From the NCBI GenBank assembly GCA_020725145.1, contig DYFO01000005.1, positions 1 through 63,561 on the forward strand: a DNA stretch of 63,561 nucleotides, written 5' to 3'. Position numbers and translations under genes: made by a program. This document shows positions 5,519 to 39,632 of this stretch, piece after piece (within the stretch, counting starts at the first letter, position 1; each line of letters starts with the position of its first letter). This DNA is from Symbiobacterium thermophilum. Its GTDB lineage: Bacteria > Bacillota > Sulfobacillia > UBA995. Below the pieces are notes generated by a model, which saw only the letters and a program-made list of their open reading frames with translations, was not told the origin of the DNA and ran no database searches.

Positions 5519-6448
5519 ATGCGACTGAAAAGCAAGCACGTGCTGGGTCTGCGCGAGATGGAGGCCGAGGAGATCAACCTCGTGCTGGACACGGCCGACT
5601 CCATGAAGGAGATCATCGGCCGCGAGATCAAGAAAGTTCCCACCCTTCGGGGGAGGACGCTGGTCACGCTGTTTTACGAGCCCAGCACGCGGACCAGGAC
5701 ATCCTTCGAGCTTGCCGGCAAGTACATGAGCGCGGACACCGTGAACATCGCCACCACCACCTCGGCGGTGGTCAAGGGAGAGACGCTCAAGGACACCGCC
5801 CGCACCCTGGAGATGATGGGGACCGACGTGCTGGTCATGCGCCACCCCATCTCGGGGTCCTGCCACCTCCTTGCCCGCACGGTGAGCTGCTCGGTGATCA
5901 ACGCCGGCGACGGCATGCACGAGCATCCCTCCCAGGGCCTGCTCGACCTTTACACCATCAGGCAGAAGAAAGGGAAGATCGCCGGGCTGCGGGTGGCCAT
6001 CGTGGGCGACATCCTGCACAGCAGGGTGGCCCGCTCCAACCTCTGGGGTCTCACCAAGCTGGGAGCGGAGGTGGTAGTGACCGGGCCGAGCACCCTGCTA
6101 CCGCCGGCGGCGCAGGAGCTCGGCGTACGGGCCACCAGCCGGGTCGAGGAGGCCCTGGAGGGGGCGGATGTGGTGAACGTGCTGCGGTTGCAGCTGGAAC
6201 GGCAGAAGGGGGGCCTCTTCCCCTCCATCCGCGAGTACTCGCGGATGTTCGGGGTCAACCGTGAGCGGCTGGCCCTGGCCAAACCGGACGTGCTGCTGAT
6301 GCATCCCGGGCCCATGAACCGGGGAGTGGAGCTAAGCTCGGAGGTGGCCGACTCGGTGTACTCCAGCATCAACGAACAGGTGACCAACGGGGTGGCGGTG
6401 CGCATGGCCCTCCTGTACCTGCTGCTGGGAGGAGGTGAGGCGGCGTGA
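5519..6448 (+). CDS. pyrB: aspartate carbamoyltransferase catalytic subunit
   Basis: [23 protein letters not shown] and [10 protein letters not shown] motifs. Confidence 0.97.
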
Positions 6449-8827: not shown

Positions 8828-11800
8828 CTGCCGCTCAAACCGTTCCTGCGCACGGTAATGGTCTTCGGTTCCGGTCCCATCATCATCGGGCAGGCGGCGG
8901 AGTTCGACTACGCCGGCAGCCAGGCCTGCCGGACGTTGCGCGAGGAAGGGCTGCGGGTGGTCCTGCTCAACTCCAATCCCGCCACCATCATGACCGACGT
9001 CGAGCTGGCCGATCGGGTCTATCTGGAACCCCTGAGCTTTGAGATGGCCCGGGAGGTGCTCCGCCGGGAACGCCCCGAGGGCCTGCTTCCCACACTTGGG
9101 GGACAGGTAGGGCTCAACCTGGCGGTCGAGCTGGCCCAGGCGGGTGTGCTGGACGAGCTGGGGGTGGAGCTGCTGGGTACCCCGGTCGCGGCCATCCGGC
9201 AGGCCGAGGACCGTGAGGAATTTCGGAAGCTGCTCGTGAAGCTGGGTGAGCCCTGTCCCCGCAGCACGGCGGTGCGCTCGATAGGGGAAGCGGCCGATTT
9301 CGCGCGGGAGGCCGGTTTCCCGCTGGTCATCCGCCCCGCATTCACGCTGGGCGGTACCGGCAGCGGCGTCGCCCGGGACATGGGCGAACTGACCGTGGTG
9401 GTCGGCCGCGGGCTGTCCCAGAGTCCCGTGGGTCAGTGCCTGGTAGAGGAGTACCTGGAGGGCTGGAAGGAGATCGAGTTCGAGGTCATCCGCGACGGCC
9501 GCGACAACTGCGTGGCGGTGTGCGGTATGGAGAATCTCGATCCCATGGGCATCCACACCGGGGACAGCGTGGTGGTCGCCCCCTGCCAGACGCTGTCCGA
9601 CTGGCAGTATCAGGCGCTGCGGGCGGCGGCCTTCCGCATCGTCCGTGGCCTGGGCCTGGAAGGCGGGTGCAACGTCCAGTTTGCGGTGCGCGATGGCGAG
9701 TACCGAGTCATCGAGGTCAACCCCCGGGTGAGCCGCTCCAGCGCCCTGGCCTCCAAGGCCACCGGTTACCCCATCGCCGCGGTGGCCACGCGCATTGCCC
9801 TTGGGTACGCGCTGGACGAGATCGCGGGGTCGGTCACCGGCTCGGGCGCCGGCTTCGAACCGGTCCTCGACTACGTGGTGGTGAAGATCCCCCGCTGGCC
9901 CTTCGACAAGTTCGCGGGGGCCGACCGGCGACTGGGTACGCAGATGAAGGCCACCGGCGAGGTCATGGGCATCGACCGCACCTTCGAGGGTGCGCTGCTG
10001 AAGGCAGTACGCTCGTTGGAGCTTGAGGGGCCCGGGCTCTTCCGGCCGGAACTTTCGGCATGGACGGACGAGGAGCTACGCGAGGTCCTCTGCCGGCCCG
10101 ACGATCGGCGGCTGTTCGCGCTGGCCGAGGCCTGCCGCCGGCGGTGGCCCGGCGACGGGTTGGCCGCCCTTACCGGCATCGACCCGCACTTCATCCGGCG
10201 TCTTCAAGTGCTGGCCCGGCTGGCCCGTGAGGTGTCCACGGGGAGGCCGCTGCAGGACGCCGATCTCTTGCGCCGGGCCAAGCGGGCGGGCTTCTCAGAC
10301 CGTGAGCTCGGGTTCCTTGCCGGCGTGGACGCCGAACGCGTGGAAGAAGCGCGGCTGGCCCTGGGTCTACGTCCCGTCTACAAGGTCGTGGACAGTTTCG
10401 CAGGCGAGTTCGAGGCGGGGGCTCCCTTCTACTACTCCACGTACGAGGCCGAGGACGAACTGCCGGCACCGGGAGGTCCCAGCGTGCTGGTGGTGGGTTC
10501 GGGACCCATCCGTATCGGCCAGGGCATAGAGTTCGACTACTGCTCGGTTCACGCCGCCTGGGCATTGCGGGAGGCCGGCGTGCGCTCGCTGGTGATCAAC
10601 AACAACCCCGAGACGGTCTCCACCGACTATCTCACGTCCGATCAGCTGTTCTTCGAGCCGGTCACCCGCGAGGAGGTGCTGGAGCTGGTCAGGCGCCAGT
10701 CCCCGCGGGGAGTGCTGGTTCAGTTCGGCGGCCAGACCGCCATCAACCTGGCTCCCGAACTGGCCCGGGCAGGGGTAAGCGTGCTGGGCACCGACCCTGC
10801 GGGTATCGACCTCGCGGAGGATCGCGAGCGCTTCGAGGAGCTGCTGGGCCGCTTGGGGTTGGCCCGTCCCCCGGGCCGGGCCGTCCGCTCGCCGGCCGCG
10901 GCCGCGCGGGCGGCGGCGGAACTCGGCTATCCGGTGGTGGTGCGACCTTCTTACGTGCTGGGGGGCCGCGCCATGCAGGTGGTGCACGACGCGGCCGACC
11001 TCCGGGCCATCCTGGAGCAGGTGGACTGGCGCCGGCCGGTGCTGGTGGACCGCTTCGTCTGGGGCCGCGAGGTGGAGGTCGACGCGATCGCCGACGGCGA
11101 ACAGGTGCTGGTGCTGGGCATCCTGGAACATGTGGAGGGCACCGGCGTGCATTCGGGCGATTCCATCTCCGTCTACCCGCCCCAGGGGCTTGACGCCCCC
11201 ATACGGGGGCGTCTGGTGGAGATCACCACCGGGCTGGCGCTTGCCCTCGGCATCCGTGGCCTGGTTAACGTGCAGTACGTGCTGGCCGGCGGCGAGGTGC
11301 TGGTGCTGGAGGCCAACCCCCGCGCCAGCCGCACCGTACCCCTGCTGAGCAAGGTGACGGGGGTCGCGGCGGTACGGGCGGCCACCCGGGTGGCGCTGGG
11401 CCAGACGCTCAAGTCCATGGGGCTGCCGCACGGGCTTTGGCCGGAGCCTCCGTACGTGGCGGTGAAGGTTCCGGTATTCTCCTGGATCAAGCTGCCGGGG
11501 GTCGACAGCGGGCTGGGGCCGGAGATGAAATCGACCGGCGAGGCGCTGGGACTGGACTTCAGCTTTGAGGGCGCACTTGCCCGGGGAATGGAGGCCGCCG
11601 GATGGCGGCTGCCGCGTCCGGGAGGAACGGTGGCCTTCAGCGTGGCCGATCGTGACAAGCCGGAGGCACTGGGGCTCGCCCGGGAGTATGCGGAGGCAGG
11701 TTTCGGGCTTGCCGCCACCGGCGGCACCGCCGCCGTGCTGCGGGCCGCGGGCCTGGAGGTGCGCCAATACCGCAAGCTGAGCGAGGGCTCTCCCAACCTC

Positions 11801-32371: not shown

Positions 32372-33025
32372 GTGAACGTCGTGCTGAAGATCGGCCGGCT
32401 GCGGGACCGTCTGGTACGGCAGCGAGCCTTCCTCGGGCTCCTGCTCGGCGTCAACCTGGTGGGCGCCGCCTACGGCTTTGCCTGGTACGCGAGCCAGCTG
32501 CGGACTACCGCCGTGTGGCTTTGGCCCTTTACCGCCGACAGCCCCATGAGCCTATTCTTCTTTGCCCTGGCGCTGGTCTCCTGGCTGTGGGGAAGGCGTT
32601 GGCCGGTGATGGAAGCACTGGGATACCTGGGGCTGCTCAAGTACGGCTTCTGGACCATGCTGGTGGTCGGTGCCTGGTGGCTCCGCGGCGAGCCCTTCCT
32701 GTGGATCGACCTTTTCCTCTTCATCTCCCACGGTCTGATGGCGCTGCAGGCGCTGGTGCTGGTAGGCAGTCTGCCCGTGCGTGCGCCGGCGCTGGGGGCG
32801 GCCTTCCTCTGGTACCTGCTCAACGATTACCTCGATTACCTGCACCCGGGAACACCCACGATGGAGCTTCTGCCCGAGGGCTGGCTCATTCGGGCCATCA
32901 GCCTGGCGTCCACCCCGGTTTTCGCGATGGTGCTCGGGGTGCTGGGGGACAGGGCGGACCGCGGTCGAGTCAAACTGCCATCTACCGGCGCATTTGACGC
33001 CAACCCGCCTGATCTGGTATCATGA
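32372..33025 (+). CDS. DUF1405 (YpjA-like) membrane protein
   Basis: YGFAWYASQL, PFTADSP, KYGFWT, SHGLM and NDYLDY motifs. Confidence 0.8.
   Translation: MNVVLKIGRLRDRLVRQRAFLGLLLGVNLVGAAYGFAWYASQLRTTAVWLWPFTADSPMSLFFFALALVSWLWGRRWPVMEALGYLGLLKYGFWTMLVVGAWWLRGEPFLWIDLFLFISHGLMALQALVLVGSLPVRAPALGAAFLWYLLNDYLDYLHPGTPTMELLPEGWLIRAISLASTPVFAMVLGVLGDRADRGRVKLPSTGAFDANPPDLVS
32994..33023 (+). promoter_or_regulatory. sigma-A promoter for the riboswitch-led operon
   Basis: TTGACG, 18 nt, TATCAT with TG extension. Confidence 0.55.
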
Positions 33026-33068
33026 TCTCGACAAGCGAATAGGGTTAAGCGATCGTGTCTGACCCGGT

Positions 33069-33196
33069 CCCCTGAACGCTGAGTCTCGTAGTAGAGCGGG
33101 GGAACCAGTAGTGGGGCGAGTCCCGGGCAGCCGCCCGGGTAGGGTCACCTCTCGACCCGAGCCCGTCAGCTAACCTCGTAAGCGTGGAAGAGGGGC
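33069..33196 (+). ncRNA. cyclic di-AMP (ydaO/yuaA) riboswitch
   Basis: GCTGAGTC...GGGGGAACC...TGGGGCGAGTC...GTAGGG...CCGAGCCCGTCAGCTAACCTCGTAAGCGT match the ydaO consensus blocks. Confidence 0.92.
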
Positions 33197-33244
33197 GGAT
33201 CGGAGCAGAAAGAGTTGGCTCAAGTTACGTTTTCGCCATTCTTT

Positions 33245-33277
33245 CCGGCCCGAGGCCTCCTCGGGCCGGGTTTTTTT
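33245..33277 (+). terminator. riboswitch expression-platform terminator
   Basis: CCGGCCCGAGG-cct-CCTCGGGCCGG, then G and T7. Confidence 0.9.
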
Positions 33278-33298
33278 GCAGGAAAGGCGGTGTGGCGG

Positions 33299-34495
33299 AT
33301 GACCGTCCTGTACATGTCCCGGCACCTGACCAGGTTCCGCCGGGAGCTACGTTTCGCCGTGCTGGGTGCCGGCCACGGCGGGCAGGCCCTGGCGGGCTAT
33401 CTCGCCCGGCGTGGGTTCCCGGTGCGCCTTTACAACCGAACGCCCGACAAGCTCGCGGCCATACGTGAGCGCGGCGGTATCGCGCTCGAAGGGCAGTTTG
33501 AGGGCTTTGGCCGGCTGGATGCCGCCACCTCCGACCTGGCGGAGGCTCTGGATGGTGCGCGTGTGGTGATGGTGGTCATCCCCGCCTCGGGACACCGCTC
33601 TCTGGCACGGGCGCTGGCCCCCCACCTTGCCCCCGGTCAGGTGGTGGTGCTCAATCCCGGCAGAACGGGAGGAGCGCTCGAGGTCTATCGTATCTTCCGG
33701 GACGCCGGGGTCGATGCCGGCGTGACGGTGGCCGAGGCGCAGACCTTCATCTTCGCCAGTCGCGCGCTTGGCGAGGGTCGTGTGCGCATTTTCCAGTGCA
33801 AGCGCAGGGTTCCGGTGGCCGCCATCCCCGCGGCGCGCACCCGCGTGGTAGTGCGGCTGATGCGGCGTGCGCTACCGGAGTTCGTGCCCGCGGCTCACGT
33901 CCTGGAGACGAGTCTTGACAACATCGGGGCGATCTTCCACCCCGGCCCCACCCTGCTCAACGCGGCCCGCATCGAGAGCGGTCGGCCCTTCGATTACTAC
34001 CACGAGGGCATCACCCCCGCGGTCGCGAGGCTCCTGGAGGCAATGGACGCCGAGCGCATGGCGGTCGCACAGGCCCTCGGGGTGCGGGCCATTTCCGCCC
34101 GGGAGTGGCTGGGCGTGGCCTACGGGGCCGAGGGTGCCGACCTGCACGCGGCCATCTCTACCTGCTCGGCCTATGCCGGCCTGAGGTCTCCCCCTGACCT
34201 CGACAGCCGATACCTGCACGAGGACGTGCCGGCCAGCCTGGTTCCCATAGCCGCCCTGGGCAGACTCACGGGAGTGACCACCACGGCCATCAACGCCGTC
34301 GTGGATCTCGCCTGCCTGGTGACCGGCGTCGACTTCCGTGCAAACGGCAGAACGCTGGAGCGGATGGGTCTTGAGGGGATGAGCGTCAGGGAGCTGTGGC
34401 AGTACGTACTGGGGGGAGACGAGGCGCTTGCCCGACGCGAAGTGGCGTTCGGCAGACTCGCCGAACCGGCTCATTCTGGGGGCGGCTCTGGGTGA
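33299..34495 (+). CDS. NAD/NADP-dependent opine (octopine/nopaline) dehydrogenase family protein
   Basis: VLGAGHGG Rossmann motif, LNPGRTGGA, NIGAIFHP, YYHEGITP, DAERMAVA and RYLHEDVP. Confidence 0.9.
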   Translation: MTVLYMSRHLTRFRRELRFAVLGAGHGGQALAGYLARRGFPVRLYNRTPDKLAAIRERGGIALEGQFEGFGRLDAATSDLAEALDGARVVMVVIPASGHRSLARALAPHLAPGQVVVLNPGRTGGALEVYRIFRDAGVDAGVTVAEAQTFIFASRALGEGRVRIFQCKRRVPVAAIPAARTRVVVRLMRRALPEFVPAAHVLETSLDNIGAIFHPGPTLLNAARIESGRPFDYYHEGITPAVARLLEAMDAERMAVAQALGVRAISAREWLGVAYGAEGADLHAAISTCSAYAGLRSPPDLDSRYLHEDVPASLVPIAALGRLTGVTTTAINAVVDLACLVTGVDFRANGRTLERMGLEGMSVRELWQYVLGGDEALARREVAFGRLAEPAHSGGGSG

Positions 34496-36098
34496 TTGCG
34501 TTCACGTTGCAGGGCTGCTCGGTTTTCTGAGGGTGGCAGAAGGCGAGGGCTGGCGGACGCGGTTTCTCGGTCCGGCGGTGCCCGTATCGCGGCTGGTTGA
34601 CGCCATAGCCCGGGAGCGTCCCGACCTGGTGGCCGTGAGCTACCGCTTGACCGACGCGGCGGCCGCCCGCCTGTTCGGCGAGCTAGACCGGGAACTGGAG
34701 CAAAGGAACCTGAAGGGCGCGCGCATGGTCTTTGGCGGCACCGCTCCCGTCTGCCGCCGGGCGGAGGCCAGCGGCCTGTTCGAAGCCTGCTTCGGGCCGG
34801 CCGCCGGGCTCGACGCGGTGCTGGCCTATCTCAGGGGCGTGGGGCCGGAGTCAAGACCGGAGATTTATCCCGAGACGCTGCTCGGGCGACTCGAGGTTGC
34901 GCGACCCTTCCCGCTCATCCGCCACCACTTCGGCCAGCCCACGCTGGAGGCAACCGTCGCCGGCATCGAGCAACTGGCACAGGCTCGGGTGCTGGACATC
35001 ATCTCTTTGGGGCCCGACCAGAACGCCCAGCGCTGCTTCTTCCGCCCCGAAGAGATGGACCCCGCTCAGGACGGCGCCGGGGGGGTGCCGGTGCGCCGAC
35101 CTGAGGATTTCGTCCGCCTGTATGAGGCTTCGCGCCGGGGGAACTTCCCGCTGATGCGCTGCTACAGCGGGACACGGGATATCCTGAAGCTGGCGGAGGT
35201 GTTGCTCGGCACCATCCGCAACGCCTGGGCGGCGGTGCCTCTTTGCTGGTACAACGAGCTGGACGGTCGGAGCGACCGGCCGCTCCGGGAAGCCATCGCC
35301 GAGAACCTCTCGGTGGTGAGGTGGCACGCCGCGCGTGGCGTTCCGGTGGAGATCAACGAGGCCCATCACTGGAGCCTGCGGGAAGCCCACGACACCATCG
35401 CGGTAGTCATGGCGTACCTGGCCGCGTACAACGCGAAGGCGGCCGGAGTGCGCCACTACGTGGCGCAGTACATGTTCAACACCCCTGCGGGCACCGCTTT
35501 CACCATGGACTTGGGCAAGATGCTGGCCAAGGTGGAGATGATCGAGCGACTGCACGACGGGCGGTTTAGCACGCTGCGTCAGGTAAGGACCGGTCTTGCC
35601 AGCATGCCCGCCGATTACGCACGCGCCAAGGGGCAACTTGGCTCCTCCACCATGCTGCAGATGGCGCTTGCGCCCCACATCGTCCACGTGGTGGGTTTCA
35701 GCGAGGCCGACCACGCCGCCACCCCGGACGACATCGTGCAGAGCGCTGGACTGGTGCGGCAGGTCATCGGCAACTGCCTGGCCGGCAGCCCCGACATGAA
35801 ACGCGATCCCGCGGTGCTGGCGCGCCGCGACGAGCTTCTGGAGGAGGCCGGCGTGCTGCTGGAGGCGATCCGCGAACTGGCGCCGACCGGCACGCCCGAC
35901 CCCTTCACCGACCCGTCCACCCTGGACCGGGCCATATGCACCGGTCTACTGGACGCGCCCCACCTGCGGGGACATCACGTGGCCCGGGGGACGCTCAAGA
36001 CCCGCATCATCGACGGCGCGTGCCGGGCGGTCGACCCTGCCACGGGCCGGCCCATCTCGGAGCGGGAACGGGTGCGGCGGGTGCTGGCGCAGGCCTGA
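34428..36098 (+). CDS. cobalamin-binding domain fused to an uncharacterised catalytic domain (mutase-like)
   Basis: LGDCVHVAG (His-on-type motif), VAVSY and VFGGT B12-domain motifs, then ~400 further residues. Confidence 0.75.
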   Translation: MPDAKWRSADSPNRLILGAALGDCVHVAGLLGFLRVAEGEGWRTRFLGPAVPVSRLVDAIARERPDLVAVSYRLTDAAAARLFGELDRELEQRNLKGARMVFGGTAPVCRRAEASGLFEACFGPAAGLDAVLAYLRGVGPESRPEIYPETLLGRLEVARPFPLIRHHFGQPTLEATVAGIEQLAQARVLDIISLGPDQNAQRCFFRPEEMDPAQDGAGGVPVRRPEDFVRLYEASRRGNFPLMRCYSGTRDILKLAEVLLGTIRNAWAAVPLCWYNELDGRSDRPLREAIAENLSVVRWHAARGVPVEINEAHHWSLREAHDTIAVVMAYLAAYNAKAAGVRHYVAQYMFNTPAGTAFTMDLGKMLAKVEMIERLHDGRFSTLRQVRTGLASMPADYARAKGQLGSSTMLQMALAPHIVHVVGFSEADHAATPDDIVQSAGLVRQVIGNCLAGSPDMKRDPAVLARRDELLEEAGVLLEAIRELAPTGTPDPFTDPSTLDRAICTGLLDAPHLRGHHVARGTLKTRIIDGACRAVDPATGRPISERERVRRVLAQA

Positions 36099-36141
36099 GG
36101 CTTGGAGCAGGGAACCGGCAGGGAAAGGTCAAAGTAACAGA

Positions 36142-36171
36142 TCTCCCGCTCAGGGGGGCAACTTTTTTTTT
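36142..36171 (+). terminator. weak intrinsic terminator
   Basis: TCTCCC-gctca-GGGGGG, then a T9 run. Confidence 0.45.
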
Positions 36172-36184
36172 GGAGGCGCCAGAG

Positions 36185-37558
36185 GTGGAGCTGGGTTCGG
36201 GCCCCGTACCGCAACCGACGATCTCCCTGGGCGTGGCCAGGCGTCGTCAGGTGCTGGCACTGGCCGTGCCGGCCATCGGCGAGATGGTGCTGCACATGTT
36301 CATCTGGATCGTGGACACCGCCATGGTCGGACGACTGGGCGCGGCGGCGCTGAGCGCGGTAGGGCTCGGAGGCCACGTCTACTTCACCCTCGCGTTCGTG
36401 GTGGGAGCGGTGGGGGTAGGGGTCACCGCCATGGCCGCACGCAGCGTCGGGGCCGGGGATCGCCGCGAGGCCGCCCGGGTGGCGCGGCAAGGCCTCGTCC
36501 TGGCGGTCTTCCTGGGCCTGGGCCTGGGCCTGCTGGTGGCAGGTCTTGCCGGACCGCTTTACCGCTTCACCGGTCTTGGTCCCGAGTCCGCCGCCCTGGG
36601 TCTTACCTACCTGCGGACCCTGTCGGTGGGGGCGGTGCTCCTGCTGGTCAGCGTAGTGGCCAACGCCGCGGTGAGGGCGACCGGCAACACCCGTGTGCCG
36701 CTGCTGGCCGCCCTCGCCGGCAATCTGGTGAACGGCGTGGGCGATTACCTTCTGATCTTCGGGGTCCTGGGATTGCCCCGCCTCGGCGTGCGGGGAGCTG
36801 CGATGGCGGCGGTGCTCGGCCAGGGGGTCACGGCGGCCGTGTCCCTGTCCTACCTTTTGAGCTCGCGGACCGGACTTGACCTGGCGACGGCCGGCGGCCG
36901 GTTGGTGGACACGGGGTTGCTCCGACGCCTGGCCCGTCTCAGCCTGCCCGCCGCCGCCGAGACGGCTATCCTGGACGGCGGACGCGTCGTGTGCCAGCTG
37001 GTAGTCAGCGTCCTGGGGACGGGCGCCTTCGCCGCCCATCAGGTGGCGGTGGCCGCCGAGTCGCTGTCTTTCATGCCCGGGTACGGCTTCGCCATCGCCG
37101 CCGGCATCCTGGCCGGACAGAGCCTGGGGGCGGGATTGCCCCGCGAGGTGCGTGCCTTCACGCGGGAGGCAACCCGGCAGGCGATGGCGATCATGGGCGG
37201 GATGGGGCTTTTGTTCCTGGTATGGGCTCCGGGGTTGATCCGCCTGTTCACCACCGAGCCCGCGGTGGTGGCGCTGGGCGCGGTGTGCCTGCGCATCGCG
37301 GCCTTCGCGCAGCCGGCCATCGCCTATGCCGAAACTCACATCGGTGCCCTGCGAGGGGCGGGCGACACCCGCACCCCCATGTGGGCGAGCGCGGTGGGTA
37401 TCTGGCTATTCCGCGTGCCGGCCACTTACCTGGCCGTCGGCGTTCTCGGTCTGGATTTGCGCGCGGCATGGGTTATAATGGTTCTCGAGTGGTGGATGCG
37501 ATCGGTCCTGGTGGGGACCGCCTTCGCCCGCGGTCGCTGGCAGGAGCTCGAGGTCTGA
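36185..37558 (+). CDS. MATE-family efflux transporter
   Basis: VDTAMVGRLG, RATGNTRVP, LGVRGAAMA and LRGAGDTRTP motifs. Confidence 0.9.
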   Translation: MELGSGPVPQPTISLGVARRRQVLALAVPAIGEMVLHMFIWIVDTAMVGRLGAAALSAVGLGGHVYFTLAFVVGAVGVGVTAMAARSVGAGDRREAARVARQGLVLAVFLGLGLGLLVAGLAGPLYRFTGLGPESAALGLTYLRTLSVGAVLLLVSVVANAAVRATGNTRVPLLAALAGNLVNGVGDYLLIFGVLGLPRLGVRGAAMAAVLGQGVTAAVSLSYLLSSRTGLDLATAGGRLVDTGLLRRLARLSLPAAAETAILDGGRVVCQLVVSVLGTGAFAAHQVAVAAESLSFMPGYGFAIAAGILAGQSLGAGLPREVRAFTREATRQAMAIMGGMGLLFLVWAPGLIRLFTTEPAVVALGAVCLRIAAFAQPAIAYAETHIGALRGAGDTRTPMWASAVGIWLFRVPATYLAVGVLGLDLRAAWVIMVLEWWMRSVLVGTAFARGRWQELEV

Positions 37559-37572
37559 CGGGGGGTGCCGGT

Positions 37573-38451
37573 GTGCGCCTGGCCTTCACCAAGATGCACG
37601 GGGTCGGCAACGATTATCTGTTCGTCGATCTGACCGGGGGACGGCCGATGCCCCCCGACCTGCCCGGTCTGGCGCGGGCCATGAGTCACCGCCGCCTCGG
37701 GGTGGGCGCGGACGGACTCATCCTGGTGCTCCCCTCCACCGCTGCCGACCTGCACATGCGGGTCTTCAACGCCGACGGCAGTGAGGCCGAGATGTGCGGC
37801 AACGGCGTGCGGTGCCTCGCCCGGCTGGCCTGGGACAGGGGGCTGGCGCCGCTCGGTCCGCTGACCGTCGAGACGGCCGCCGGAAAGATCAAGGCGGAGC
37901 CCGTGCTGGAAGGCAACCGGCTGGTGGCGGTACGGGTCGACCTCGGCGAGCCCCGGCTGGCCCGCCGCGACATACCGTTGGCGGGGAGCGAGGAAGACCG
38001 CCCGGACGAGCCGGTGATCGCCCGGTCGCTGAGCGTGGAAGGGAGGACCCTGGGCTTCACCGCCGTGTCCATGGGCAACCCTCACTGCGTGATCGCGGTG
38101 GACAACGTCGGCGCCGTGGACCTGGAGGAACTGGGGCCGCAGGTTGAACGCCATCCCTGGTTCCCTCGCCGCACCAACGTGGAATTCGTCCAGGTCATCG
38201 ACCGTTCGCGGCTGCGCATGCGGGTTTGGGAACGGGGCTCAGGGGTTACCAGCGGCAGCGGCACCGGCGCGGCGGCGGCGCTCGTGGCGTGCGTGCTGGA
38301 ACGAAGGTGCGACCGCCGGGCCCGTGTGCTGATGGACGGCGGCGAGCTTGAAGTGGAATGGGCCGCCGACGGGCGCATCTGGCAGGCCGGCCCGGCGGTG
38401 GAGGTGTTTCAGGGGGAGTTTCCCCTGCCGGAAGGAGGGAGCGGTCCTTGA
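37573..38451 (+). CDS. dapF: diaminopimelate epimerase (second catalytic Cys is Ser)
   Basis: FTKMHGVGNDY, EMCGNG, SMGNPH and RVWERG motifs; TSGSGTG in place of TxACGTG. Confidence 0.9.
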   Translation: MRLAFTKMHGVGNDYLFVDLTGGRPMPPDLPGLARAMSHRRLGVGADGLILVLPSTAADLHMRVFNADGSEAEMCGNGVRCLARLAWDRGLAPLGPLTVETAAGKIKAEPVLEGNRLVAVRVDLGEPRLARRDIPLAGSEEDRPDEPVIARSLSVEGRTLGFTAVSMGNPHCVIAVDNVGAVDLEELGPQVERHPWFPRRTNVEFVQVIDRSRLRMRVWERGSGVTSGSGTGAAAALVACVLERRCDRRARVLMDGGELEVEWAADGRIWQAGPAVEVFQGEFPLPEGGSGP

Positions 38452-39632
38452 GACCGGCTGCGCGCGTGACCGGACTGCCTCCGTATCTCTTTGCCGAACT
38501 GGATCGCCTGCGCGAGGAAGCCCGGGCCAGAGGGGTGGACGTGATCGACCTGGGGACGGGAGATCCCGATCTGCCGACCCCCGTACCGGTGATCGAACGG
38601 CTGTGCCTGGAGGCCCGTGACCCGGCCAACCACCGTTACCCCGCATACCGTGGATCGGGCCGTTTTCGCGAGGCGGTGGCCGCGTACTACCGGCGACGCT
38701 TCCGCGTGGAGCTCGATCCCGACCGCGAGGTGCTGGCGGTGATAGGGTCCAAGGAAGGGATCGCCCACCTCATCTGGGCACTGGTGGACCCCGGGGACTA
38801 CGTGCTGGTGCCCGACCCCGCCTACCCCGTTTACCACACGCAGACCCTGCTTGCCGGGGGGATTCCTTTCGCACTGCCCTTGCGGCGCGACCACGGATAC
38901 TTCCCCGATCTGACGGCCGTACCCGACGCGGTCCGTGAGCGTGCCAAGCTCATGTTTTTGAACTACCCAAACAACCCCACGGCCGGTGTGGCCACTCAAG
39001 AGCAACTGGCGGAGGCGGTGAAGTTCGTGCGCCGGCACGACATCCTCCTCTGCCATGATGCCGCATACGTGGAGATGACCTACGACGGGGTGGTAGCACC
39101 CAGCGTGCTGGAGATTCCGGGAGCCCGCGAGGTGGCCATCGAGCTTTATTCGCTGTCCAAACCTTTCAACATGACCGGATGGCGCATCGGGGCGGCGGTC
39201 GGAAACGCCTCGGCGCTCGGTATTCTTGGCAGGTTGAAGGGCCACACCGATTCCGGGCAGTTCACCGCGGTGCAGCACGCGGCGGTAGAGGCACTCACCT
39301 GGAAGGGGGCGGCCGCCTTCCTACAGGAGATGAACGCGATCTACGCACGGCGTCGGGACCTGGTGGTGGGCCGCCTGGCCTCTTTCGGATGGGATTTCGA
39401 CCTTCCCCGGGGCACTTTCTACGTCTGGGCACGGCCGCCCGGGGGCCTGCCCGTCGGCGAGTTTGCCTCGAGATTGCTGGAGGATGCCGGAGTCCTGGTC
39501 GCTCCGGGGCCTGCTTACGGTCGGGGTGGCGAGGGGTACGTGCGCCTGGCACTGTGCGTGGCCGACGCGCGGCTGACGCAGGCCATGGACCGCATCGCCG
39601 CTTGGCAGGCCCGAGGGGACTTGCGGTTTTGA
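38448..39632 (+). CDS. dapL: LL-diaminopimelate aminotransferase
   Basis: PPYLFA, GSKEGIAH, NYPNNPT and SLSKPFNMTGWRIG motifs; adjacent to dapF. Confidence 0.85.
   Translation: MRPAARVTGLPPYLFAELDRLREEARARGVDVIDLGTGDPDLPTPVPVIERLCLEARDPANHRYPAYRGSGRFREAVAAYYRRRFRVELDPDREVLAVIGSKEGIAHLIWALVDPGDYVLVPDPAYPVYHTQTLLAGGIPFALPLRRDHGYFPDLTAVPDAVRERAKLMFLNYPNNPTAGVATQEQLAEAVKFVRRHDILLCHDAAYVEMTYDGVVAPSVLEIPGAREVAIELYSLSKPFNMTGWRIGAAVGNASALGILGRLKGHTDSGQFTAVQHAAVEALTWKGAAAFLQEMNAIYARRRDLVVGRLASFGWDFDLPRGTFYVWARPPGGLPVGEFASRLLEDAGVLVAPGPAYGRGGEGYVRLALCVADARLTQAMDRIAAWQARGDLRF

Follow-up and report, generated by a model that had tools for sequence, protein, structure and literature searches.

The 63.5-kb window analysed here (the whole stretch of Symbiobacterium thermophilum DNA introduced above) contains, on the forward strand, a c-di-AMP riboswitch followed by overlapping genes for an opine dehydrogenase (ODH) and a single-chain B12 enzyme. 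The complete ydaO/yuaA aptamer at 33067-33199 matches Rfam model RF00379 over positions 1-134 of 134 with 94.8 bits (E 4.3e-21; gathering score 38), is the sole Rfam match in the window and the sole RF00379 match in the 2.07-Mb genome, and can be aligned with nine operon-linked aptamers of other genomes. Ahead of it on the same strand, at 32994-33023, stands a site resembling a sigma-70-type promoter (TTGACG and TATCAT 18 nt apart, the spacer bearing an extended TG), a consensus match only, in which 10 of 12 consensus positions agree; a 5-kb stretch contained one such site, with 0.3 expected. The leader is covered by two metatranscriptome contigs, 33018-33204 (depth 71) and 33052-33214 (depth 43.5), which come from one study, were compared with 4.8 kb and cannot show transcript ends; the first begins within the -10 hexamer of the promoter-like site, so the real transcription start may be further upstream.

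The expression platform contains an intrinsic terminator at 33244-33277 (+ strand), with a 12-bp stem of 10 G-C pairs (33244-33270), a loop of 3 and T7 directly after the stem, and a similar hairpin with a U run lies 3' of the aptamer in 18 of the 21 riboswitch-bearing loci, the window counted. RNA folding of 33155-33262 pairs GAGGGGC..GGAUCGG with UCCGG..GCCUCCUC; in this predicted fold a candidate anti-terminator strand, the 3' tail of the aptamer (33189-33205, + strand), base-pairs with the left terminator arm (33243-33262). PMC9337991 gives comparable logic for another c-di-AMP riboswitch, and known c-di-AMP riboswitches likewise take the anti-terminator from the aptamer's 3' side. These sequence features establish a genuine riboswitch with a terminator platform, and the promoter, the complete ydaO aptamer and the strong terminator of the initial annotation were all recovered at the positions given there, the aptamer by an Rfam profile search.

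The first gene (33299-34495, + strand) encodes a CENDH-like opine dehydrogenase of 398 aa, in agreement with its earlier reading as an octopine/nopaline dehydrogenase. Pfam Octopine_DH (PF02317) is found at 8e-46 together with an NAD-binding N-terminal domain, and the structure of N-(1-D-carboxyethyl)-L-norvaline dehydrogenase from Arthrobacter sp. 1C (CENDH, PDB 1bg6) aligns at 5.8e-83 across 346 residues. His202, Arg292 and Asp297 of CENDH, residues with a role in that enzyme, are identical in gene 1, which thus resembles CENDH and octopine dehydrogenase in domains and in the aligned His/Arg/Asp. The mechanical open reading frame begins at 33215, within the leader; the gene most probably begins at ATG 33299 (or GTG 33290), after AGGAAAGG.

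The second gene (34428-36098, + strand; 556 aa) starts at a TTG with a Shine-Dalgarno sequence, preceded by GGGGGGAG, and therefore overlaps gene 1 by 68 nt, as first described. Its product joins a B12 domain of Rossmann type (roughly residues 11-139; Pfam B12-binding, PF02310, at residues 16-127, 2.5e-11) to a TIM barrel like that of GlmE (roughly residues 145-550). Pfam gives no Radical_SAM match in it and CxxxCxxC does not occur in its translation, as had been stated. The cobalamin motif reads G-D-C-V-H-V-A-G, that is, CxHxxG instead of the canonical DxHxxG of glutamate mutase, and the Cys replaces the Asp in 77 of 79 locus proteins, which could mean a different cofactor state. The proposed "His-on" domain thus holds as far as an N-terminal B12 domain is concerned, with His26 aligned to the cobalt-ligand His of OraE and 2yxb, but it departs from the canonical motif at the Asp position.

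An AF2 model of gene 2 (pLDDT 89.7) has its best structural matches in GlmE (1cb7_B/6h9e_B; Foldseek E 1e-14), with Z 31.3 and rmsd 3.2 over 375 residues, followed among other barrels by KamD (Z 29.8), OraE (26) and MCM (21), while DHPS and IspG reach about 15-17. hhalign against GlmE gives a probability of 72% and E 3.3e-5, and the B12 domain matches OraE at 4.6e-8, ligand His included. By its predicted fold, the protein is a fused GlmS+GlmE-type adenosylcobalamin isomerase forming a family of its own, which bears out the earlier description of a single-chain, glutamate-mutase-like enzyme; adenosylcobalamin would be its cofactor, and both a CobA-type adenosyltransferase and a cobalamin riboswitch are present in the genome. 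That gene 2 is instead a methylcobalamin methyltransferase or corrinoid protein seems highly improbable. Many homologues are named "methionine synthase" in databases, corrinoid proteins of methyltransferases are among the best sequence matches of the B12 domain (4jgi, 8.8e-9; MttC, 1.2e-5), NCBIfam MtgC matches weakly (18 bits where the cut-off is 370; E 0.0013), and the unusual Cys beside the ligand His could suit other chemistry. However, adenosylcobalamin isomerase barrels score Z 21-31 against about 15 for DHPS-type pterin barrels, Pfam detects no B12-binding_2 cap domain in gene 2, and part of the family passes Pfam Met_asp_mut_E. A chaperone gene of GlmL/MutL type (PF13941, 4.6e-150), which also argues against a methyltransferase, lies directly 3' of the B12 gene in only 2 of the 80 loci, L012 and L022.

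The likeness of the predicted isomerase to the glutamate mutase system (GlmS/GlmE with GlmL/MutL of Clostridium cochlearium; 1cb7, 6h9e) lies in the B12 Rossmann domain and the TIM barrel, with common anchors in the hhalign alignment at D89/D190, D96/D197, G151-T152-x-D154/G248-T249-x-D251 and Y177-N178/Y275-N276 (GlmE/gene 2). Unlike the two subunits GlmS and GlmE, gene 2 encodes one fused chain of 12-15% identity, and its partner is an opine dehydrogenase instead of the methylaspartase that accompanies glutamate mutase. In the same alignment the glutamate-binding residues of GlmE are replaced (R66 by H167, R100 by Q201, R149 by Y246, E171 by V270 and Y181 by G280), which makes glutamate doubtful as the substrate, and glutamate mutase proper was rejected as an identity for gene 2. 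The barrel likeness to lysine 5,6- and ornithine 4,5-aminomutase (KamDE and OraSE; 1xrs, 8t0v, 3kow) is nearly equal (Z 26-30), but the gene 2 family has a gap where OraE carries its PLP-lysine loop (IDIKHGG), and the family alignment has no invariant lysine in residues 1-140, the B12 domain, so an OraE-type PLP-dependent amino shift, and with it the earlier "aminomutase-like" reading, is unlikely.

All of these nearest folds, glutamate mutase and the two aminomutases, belong to amino-acid fermentation enzymes, and they raise the view that mutase and ODH break down an amino acid or opine-like compound, for instance in a variant of glutamate/aspartate fermentation, where the c-di-AMP signal would be tied to glutamate and K+ balance through removal of a solute and not its synthesis. 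Opine dehydrogenases are reversible, and the carriers are mostly anaerobic fermenters. We nevertheless consider such a catabolic role improbable: canonical GlmE is also present in 9 of 40 carrier genomes, so the gene 2 protein is no substitute for it, and the partner genes and riboswitches described below speak against breakdown as well.

Downstream of gene 2, a hairpin with its stem at 36142-36158 is followed by CAAC, a 4-nt spacer, and T9 (36142-36173, + strand); the T-rich terminator initially annotated here is thus present, but it is weak, with a stem of only 5-6 bp. A MATE efflux transporter gene follows at 36185-37558 (+ strand; MatE/TIGR00797; GTG start after GGAGG). The suggestion that it exports the product fails, since just one of the 80 loci (L045) has a MATE homologue close to the pair, there upstream of the riboswitch, and the transporter is probably a neighbour and not part of the module. 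An LhaT-like DUF1405 gene upstream and DapF downstream are further neighbours in the window.

The B12 family is present in at least 590 species genomes. In 74 of 80 loci, which span many phyla of bacteria and archaea, the ODH gene sits immediately upstream in the same orientation, so that the two genes are strongly conserved together; no fixed context of this kind is known for CENDH. By its description, the family is the "novel B12-dependent protein family" flagged as unknown in 11 genomes by Zhang, Rodionov, Gelfand and Gladyshev in 2009 (PMC2667541), with a distant N-terminal B12-binding domain, always beside an octopine/nopaline dehydrogenase and with a D-Ala:D-Ala ligase and asparagine synthase close by. 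The available text of that paper leaves the function open and names neither a GlmE-like barrel nor riboswitch control, and our literature search found no published function for the pair and no published riboswitch link. The absence of a characterised pathway was rightly stated, although the pair itself had already been flagged. An AsnB-like gene accompanies the pair in 32 of 80 loci (catalytic Cys absent in 22, present in 8, unclear in 2) and a Ddl-like ATP-grasp gene in 8, in L039 between riboswitch and ODH. No transporter, lyase or other catabolic gene recurs, and the partners that do recur are amide-forming ligases that depend on ATP, which weighs against catabolism. In the S. thermophilum genome no AsnB-like gene was found and no ligase adjoins the pair, so an amidation step would be optional.

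The link between riboswitch and operon recurs across genomes. In 1.04 Mb (the window and the 80 loci), 21 c-di-AMP aptamers were found, at the window and 20 of the loci, all on the operon strand and 5' of the operon; the other 60 loci have none. Among 40 genomes (G001-G040), 19 have a c-di-AMP riboswitch and 12 of these have one at the ODH-B12 operon, 12 of 44 matches. In a further sample of 40 relatives picked by kinship, 29 have a gene 2 ortholog; the riboswitch lies 1.2-2.3 kb upstream in 13 of them, being the only c-di-AMP match of the genome in 7 of the 13, as in S. thermophilum, and 9 of the 29 have no c-di-AMP riboswitch at all. [quoted passage not shown] According to the available text of PMC9646797, nhaA-I RNAs are ON switches for Li+ or Na+. 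These riboswitches provide independent support for an ion or osmotic role, the way the operon is regulated suggests salt and ion stress, and induction by Li+/Na+ is hard to square with a breakdown route. The same RF00379 aptamer class and terminator-based OFF logic are found in the B. subtilis kimA/ydaO leader and in a tandem Na+/c-di-AMP switch of Dehalobacter sp. CF, which precedes lysine 2,3-aminomutase (PMC9337991), likewise an amino-acid-rearrangement radical enzyme; unlike those under known c-di-AMP osmolyte riboswitches, the enzymes of the window operon are uncharacterised.

The likeliest role of the pair would be stress-induced synthesis of an amino-acid-derived solute. Specifically, we see about an even chance that a c-di-AMP OFF riboswitch acting by transcription termination controls a two-enzyme module making a rearranged N-carboxyalkyl amino acid, a probable solute. 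With abundant c-di-AMP, the aptamer would keep its 3' tail and the terminator (33244-33277) would form, ending transcription, whereas low c-di-AMP, as a signal of the cell's potassium or osmotic need, would free the tail to bind the left terminator arm, so that the operon is transcribed. With NAD(P)H, the CENDH-type dehydrogenase would link an amino group with a 2-oxo acid. Gene 2 would represent a new adenosylcobalamin-type radical isomerase family with a GlmS-like B12 domain and a GlmE-like barrel, and the two enzymes together would most likely turn common amino and oxo acids into an N-carboxyalkyl amino acid of rearranged (branched) form. Where an AsnB-like or Ddl-like ligase accompanies the pair, as in many other genomes, it may then amidate the product, which is probably a compatible solute or a charge-balancing metabolite under ionic stress.

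A role in the cell envelope is also conceivable, if rather unlikely: the pair would supply peptidoglycan or lipoproteins with a non-canonical amino acid or with an N-carboxyalkyl modification, and the riboswitch would belong to the wall-remodelling side known for the c-di-AMP regulon. AsnB-type enzymes amidate meso-DAP in some Bacillota, and both the AsnB-like genes and the Ddl-family genes, including the one inside the L039 operon, suit this role, as do DapF, 3' of the pair in the window, L060, L062 and L070, Lnt-like genes in 6 loci and Lgt in 2 of the 80-locus set, and the LhaT-like gene of the window. Wall-remodelling genes are known under c-di-AMP riboswitches in the available text of PMC9337991. 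However, the family also occurs in peptidoglycan-free archaea (Thorarchaeota, Theionarchaea, Thermococci and Methanomicrobia loci), DapF linkage is limited to close relatives, the nhaA-I riboswitch and Na+/H+ exchanger of L042 indicate ions, and the minimal two-gene form has no ligase for attaching a product. Against the solute reading, in turn, the Ddl-like, AsnB-like, DapF, Lnt, Lgt and LhaT-like neighbours also fit an envelope role.

The operon leader carries, on the forward strand at 33067-33199, a complete c-di-AMP (ydaO/yuaA) aptamer, in agreement with the complete ydaO aptamer described in the initial annotation. The covariance model of the Rfam family RF00379 matches it from end to end (positions 1-134 of 134) at E 4.3e-21 and with 94.8 bits, above the gathering score of 38. 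RF00379 is the sole Rfam family matched in the whole 63.5-kb window, and in the 2.07-Mb, 94.5%-complete genome it is matched once, by this same aptamer. The strong leader terminator described earlier is also present, as a hairpin of 12 bp, 10 of them G-C, followed by T7 (33244-33277, forward strand); it begins 45 nt 3' of the aptamer and forms the expression platform. The c-di-AMP riboswitches are OFF switches and are tied to osmotic stress. Judged from its sequence, the aptamer is a c-di-AMP riboswitch with an expression platform, for which ligand binding and lowered expression are predicted, and the riboswitch itself is ordinary. Folding makes the aptamer 3' tail (33189-33205) a candidate anti-terminator that could base-pair with the terminator's left arm, and at low c-di-AMP this pairing would lead to read-through. 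The same anti-terminator logic is described for another c-di-AMP riboswitch in a published report (PMC9337991).

Two metatranscriptome runs of a single study each gave one contig, of depth 71 (33018-33204) and 43.5 (33052-33214), both on the leader, so this leader RNA does occur in nature. Within the 4.8 kb from 32800 to 37600, which a DNA run covers evenly, RNA contigs fall on the leader only and none on the coding regions or flanks, a distribution that, being made of contigs, can neither show absence there nor bear on termination. The pattern suggests that the leader RNA is abundant and stable in situ, with the reservation that contigs give neither transcript ends nor levels. As for the promoter claimed earlier, a consensus scan of 5 kb returned one site against 0.3 expected, namely TTGACG and TATCAT separated by 18 nt with a TG (32994-33023, forward strand); a consensus-like site is thus present, but its assignment is uncertain because the first RNA contig begins at 33018, inside the predicted -10 hexamer.

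The description of the genes in the initial annotation holds overall, with two corrections, which concern the start of the first gene and the cobalamin motif of the second. The mechanical open reading frame of gene 1 starts within the leader, and a plausible start, from the sequence, is the ATG at 33299 (or the GTG at 33290), behind AGGAAAGG. Its product matches Octopine_DH (PF02317) at 8e-46 and, in the N-terminus, the NAD-binding families PF01210/PF03446, and aligns with N-(1-D-carboxyethyl)-L-norvaline dehydrogenase (CENDH, PDB 1bg6) at 5.8e-83 across 346 residues, so that the octopine/nopaline dehydrogenase assignment is upheld by both the PF02317 and the 1bg6 matches. In the 1bg6 alignment, from which the positions were counted, His202, Arg292 and Asp297 of CENDH, which we take to be its catalytic His and Arg/Asp, all face identical residues. 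With Rossmann and Octopine_DH domains and the three catalytic positions, gene 1 is by sequence a predicted member of the opine dehydrogenase (ODH) family.

Gene 2, which encodes the B12-domain protein, has its start at TTG 34428, preceded by GGGGGGAG, and shares 68 nt with gene 1, the overlap reported before. The recorded protein (P0001, 521 aa) starts 35 residues late and loses the CxHxxG motif (34428-34535); the longer form is favoured, with homologues covering 34428-34535 and a strong Shine-Dalgarno sequence before TTG 34428. Residues 16-127 form a B12-binding domain (PF02310, 2.5e-11), no second Pfam domain was found, and an NCBIfam search likewise gave no call beyond B12-binding. In sequence-only searches of the PDB, gene 2 and its family profile matched B12 domains alone, and the barrel that follows is seen through fold comparison. 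An AlphaFold2 model built with 30 homologues as input (mean pLDDT 89.7) ranked glutamate mutase E (GlmE; 6h9e_B, 1cb7_B) first in Foldseek at E 1e-14, and VIA-align superposed model residues 147-550 on GlmE with Z 31.3 and rmsd 3.2 over 375 residues, followed by lysine 5,6-aminomutase (KamD, Z 29.8), ornithine 4,5-aminomutase (OraE, Z 26) and methylmalonyl-CoA mutase (MCM, Z 21). Since fold comparison puts GlmE first, gene 2 is, on the modelled structure, a predicted fusion protein in which a single chain joins a GlmS-like B12 domain to a GlmE-like barrel, as the earlier glutamate-mutase-like proposal had it, and the isomerase-type TIM barrel is common to gene 2 and the four enzymes (Z 21-31.3).

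A methyltransferase role for gene 2 is less likely. DHPS-type and IspG barrels reach just Z 15-17 against the model (DHPS-type about 15), the NCBIfam model MtgC scores 18 bits against a cut-off of 370, and the helical cap B12-binding_2 (PF02607) has no match in gene 2. Radical-SAM features are missing, with no PF04055 match and no CxxxCxxC in the translation; the absence of that motif had been noted before.

Within the B12 domain, H26, G29, G103 and G104 are invariant, and in alignments with OraE and the archaeal MCM subunit 2yxb His26 falls on their cobalt-ligand His. GlmS/GlmE-type isomerases pair the ligand His with the Asp of DxHxxG, but in the gene 2 family a Cys stands in its place, two residues before His26 (CxHxxG); the Cys is found in 77 of 79 locus proteins and in 113 of the 116 database homologues showing the motif, with Asp in the remaining two and three, respectively. 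The His-on cobalamin domain proposed earlier has the ligand His and also the GG motif, but Cys in place of the canonical Asp.

Glutamate mutase proper (EC 5.4.99.1) and the pyridoxal phosphate (PLP)-dependent aminomutases were both rejected. The gene 2 family was aligned by hhalign with a profile of nine canonical GlmE sequences, taken from genomes also carrying the family, at 72% probability (E 3.3e-5, 381 columns), with D89/D190, D96/D197, GT-x-D and YN as GlmE/gene 2 anchors. In this alignment R66, R100, R149, E171 and Y181 of GlmE, presumably its glutamate-binding residues, face H167, Q201, Y246, V270 and G280 of gene 2, positions that could shift at 72% probability. All but E171, which varies, are invariant in the nine GlmE sequences, and glutamate mutase proper is out on account of their replacement in gene 2; a true GlmE occurs beside the gene 2 family in 9 of 40 carrier genomes. 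Arg165 and Arg244 of gene 2 are invariant and stand two residues ahead of GlmE substrate positions, and the barrel is rich in invariant Arg, His and Lys, which suggests an anionic substrate. The PLP-dependent B12 aminomutases of the KamDE and OraSE type are disfavoured because the OraE loop carrying the PLP-lysine is an insertion missing from the gene 2 family profile and no Lys is invariant in residues 1-140 of the family, and with the loop the earlier aminomutase-like proposal falls. The modelled protein is thus predicted to be adenosylcobalamin-isomerase-like, yet distinct from glutamate mutase.

To our knowledge, few adenosylcobalamin isomerase families are known, and the gene 2 family would be a new one; with 7607 matches among 8000 candidates scored, it is carried by at least 590 species genomes of bacteria and archaea, including Bacillota, Bacteroidota, Ignavibacteria, Aminicenantes, Armatimonadota, Dehalococcoidia and several archaeal groups. 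Its pairing with ODH is conserved, as the initial annotation would have it. In the best 80 loci, where ODH was sought by tblastn, it was found in 75, directly upstream on the same strand in 74 (gaps of -45 to +191 nt) and downstream of the B12 gene in one (L044); two of the other five have almost no upstream DNA (L028, L075), and ODH is truly missing near the B12 gene in L015, L019 and L073. Zhang et al. 2009 predicted the same "novel B12-dependent protein family", always adjoining octopine/nopaline dehydrogenase and with Ddl and asparagine synthase close by, and left it uncharacterised (PMC2667541); the family has been without a function since. In the literature covered there was no later work on the 2009 family and no mention of its riboswitch control, although gene tables in the supplements to the riboswitch papers may list the operon. 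The earlier statement that no characterised pathway has this composition therefore stands, but the family and its ODH pairing had already been predicted (PMC2667541).

The commonest third gene is AsnB-like (32 of 80 loci); among proteins of known structure it is closest to E. coli AsnB and beta-lactam synthetase, and of the 32 genes 22 lack the N-terminal catalytic Cys, 8 have it and 2 are unclear. Eight of the 80 loci contain a Ddl-family ATP-grasp ligase, and a GlmL/MutL-type chaperone gene lies immediately 3' of the B12 gene in two (L012, L022). An AsnB-like partner was not found in the 94.5%-complete genome of the window, in which PF00733 gave four weak matches (24-30 bits) to PP-loop proteins. 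This genome encodes four MutL paralogues, all away from the pair, as well as two diadenylate cyclases, a CobA-type adenosyltransferase and a cobalamin riboswitch, with no PF06368 match and no PduO-type adenosyltransferase. Gene 2 is followed by a weak hairpin and T9 (36142-36173, forward strand), so that the T-rich terminator claimed earlier has its T-tract but a weak stem, and then by a MATE gene starting at GTG 36185 on the same strand. The suggestion that this MATE protein exports the product was not upheld, since tblastn of the 80 loci gave a homologue in just one (L045), where it lies 5' of the riboswitch, and MATE is rejected as a conserved partner.

Riboswitch control recurs in other genomes. 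A covariance model derived from ten aptamers linked to the operon gave 21 matches in 1.04 Mb, in the window and in 20 of the 80 loci, all on the operon strand and just 5' of the operon, and 18 of the 21 leaders have a terminator-like hairpin 3' of the aptamer. Among the first 40 carrier genomes, 19 have any c-di-AMP riboswitch, which lies at the pair operon in 12 of these 19, that is, in 12 of 44 matches. In a sample of 40 relatives of the window's genome, picked by relatedness and not by feature, 29 carry gene 2, and 13 of these have an RF00379 match 1.2-2.3 kb upstream on the same contig and strand, which is the sole match of the genome in 7 of the 13, as in the window's genome; RF00379 was found nowhere in the genomes of 9 of the 29, and 3 are unjudgeable, the gene lying at a contig edge. 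The link between riboswitch and pair that the initial annotation had asked about is thus a recurrent one. Cultured carriers with the riboswitch include Caldanaerobacter subterraneus DSM 13054, Fervidicola ferrireducens and Tepidanaerobacter acetatoxydans, and Halothermothrix orenii has an orthologue of gene 2. Because the operon is the sole c-di-AMP riboswitch target in several genomes, its product may be central to the c-di-AMP response.

Rfam scans at gathering thresholds covered 77 of the 80 loci (L071, L076 and L079 were covered by the operon-derived model alone), and the RNAs found were c-di-AMP and nhaA-I riboswitches, one PyrR site, tRNAs and an rRNA end, with no other riboswitch class. 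In two loci an nhaA-I riboswitch stands directly 5' of the operon and replaces the c-di-AMP riboswitch. These are L042 (Desantisbacteria; nhaA-I at 5760-5813 and 10453-10505), with the order ODH-B12-CBS-Na+/H+ exchanger and a second nhaA-I copy before an AsnB-like gene, and L044 (Firestonebacteria; nhaA-I at 163-223), with the order B12-AsnB-ODH. According to one report, nhaA-I RNAs are ON switches activated by Li+, and Na+-responsive variants are rare (PMC9646797). Ion transporters lie in or beside some operons, such as the Na+/H+ exchanger of L042, a P-type ATPase in L011 and a ClC channel in L047.

A role of the operon in salt or potassium stress is favoured, because two ion-related riboswitch classes control it and ion transporters accompany it in some loci. 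The main rival is a role in the cell envelope, to which Ddl, AsnB, DapF, Lnt, Lgt and LhaT-like neighbours point and which the archaeal carriers weaken. In the proposed pathway, the ODH would form an opine from an amino acid and a 2-oxo acid by condensation, the B12 enzyme would carry out a radical 1,2-rearrangement of this opine or of its amino-acid precursor, and the optional AsnB-like or Ddl-like ligases would amidate a carboxylate; a catabolic role for the same pair is less likely. Control by two unrelated ion-state riboswitch classes (c-di-AMP and Li+/Na+) leads to the hypothesis that the product fills a gap among the compatible solutes or counter-ions of anaerobes and thermophiles, and the regulation indicates the conditions under which to seek it. 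It is conceivable, and we put it forward as a tentative and rather doubtful proposal, that the product of the pair belongs to a class of stress metabolite not known before. The ODH would then form a polycarboxylate opine, and a new adenosylcobalamin mutase family, with its Cys-His lower-ligand motif and Arg/His-rich active site, would rearrange the carbon skeleton of the opine and not that of a free amino acid, which would make it the first B12 mutase with an N-substituted amino acid as its substrate. The product would be the main riboswitch-controlled c-di-AMP output, and across a whole Bacillota class the sole one, independently recruited under Li+/Na+ riboswitches in other phyla.

Several further observations concern the neighbourhood. 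In the window, a DapF-like open reading frame (about 37600-38451) follows the MATE gene and is itself followed by an aminotransferase-like one (38358-39632); DapF also lies 3' of the B12 gene in three close relatives (L060, L062, L070). Lipoprotein-modification genes recur by the operon in unrelated lineages, with a DUF1405/LhaT-like gene just upstream in the window (32372-33025), Lnt-like genes with a Crp-family regulator in Halanaerobiales (L017, L020, L021, L025, L031, L068) and Lgt in Tepidanaerobacter (L078, L080). In a Thermococci locus, a D-glutamate-cyclase-like gene (L010:6989-8071; PF14336, 5.3e-69) lies between the B12 and AsnB-like genes, a possible sign that the product derives from glutamate or is cyclised. 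Three relatives have distant paralogues of the barrel, with 40-41% identity to gene 2 residues ~131-473 (G076:C91:6989-8053, G065:C117:12396-13511 and G069:C73:14385-15395); these lie within very long open frames of 1225-1357 aa and may be a fused form of the gene 2 barrel. In the window's own genome, one MutL/GlmL paralogue adjoins another B12-domain gene within a 922-aa open frame (G000:C66:87304-89084), and this pair is a separate B12 mutase system.
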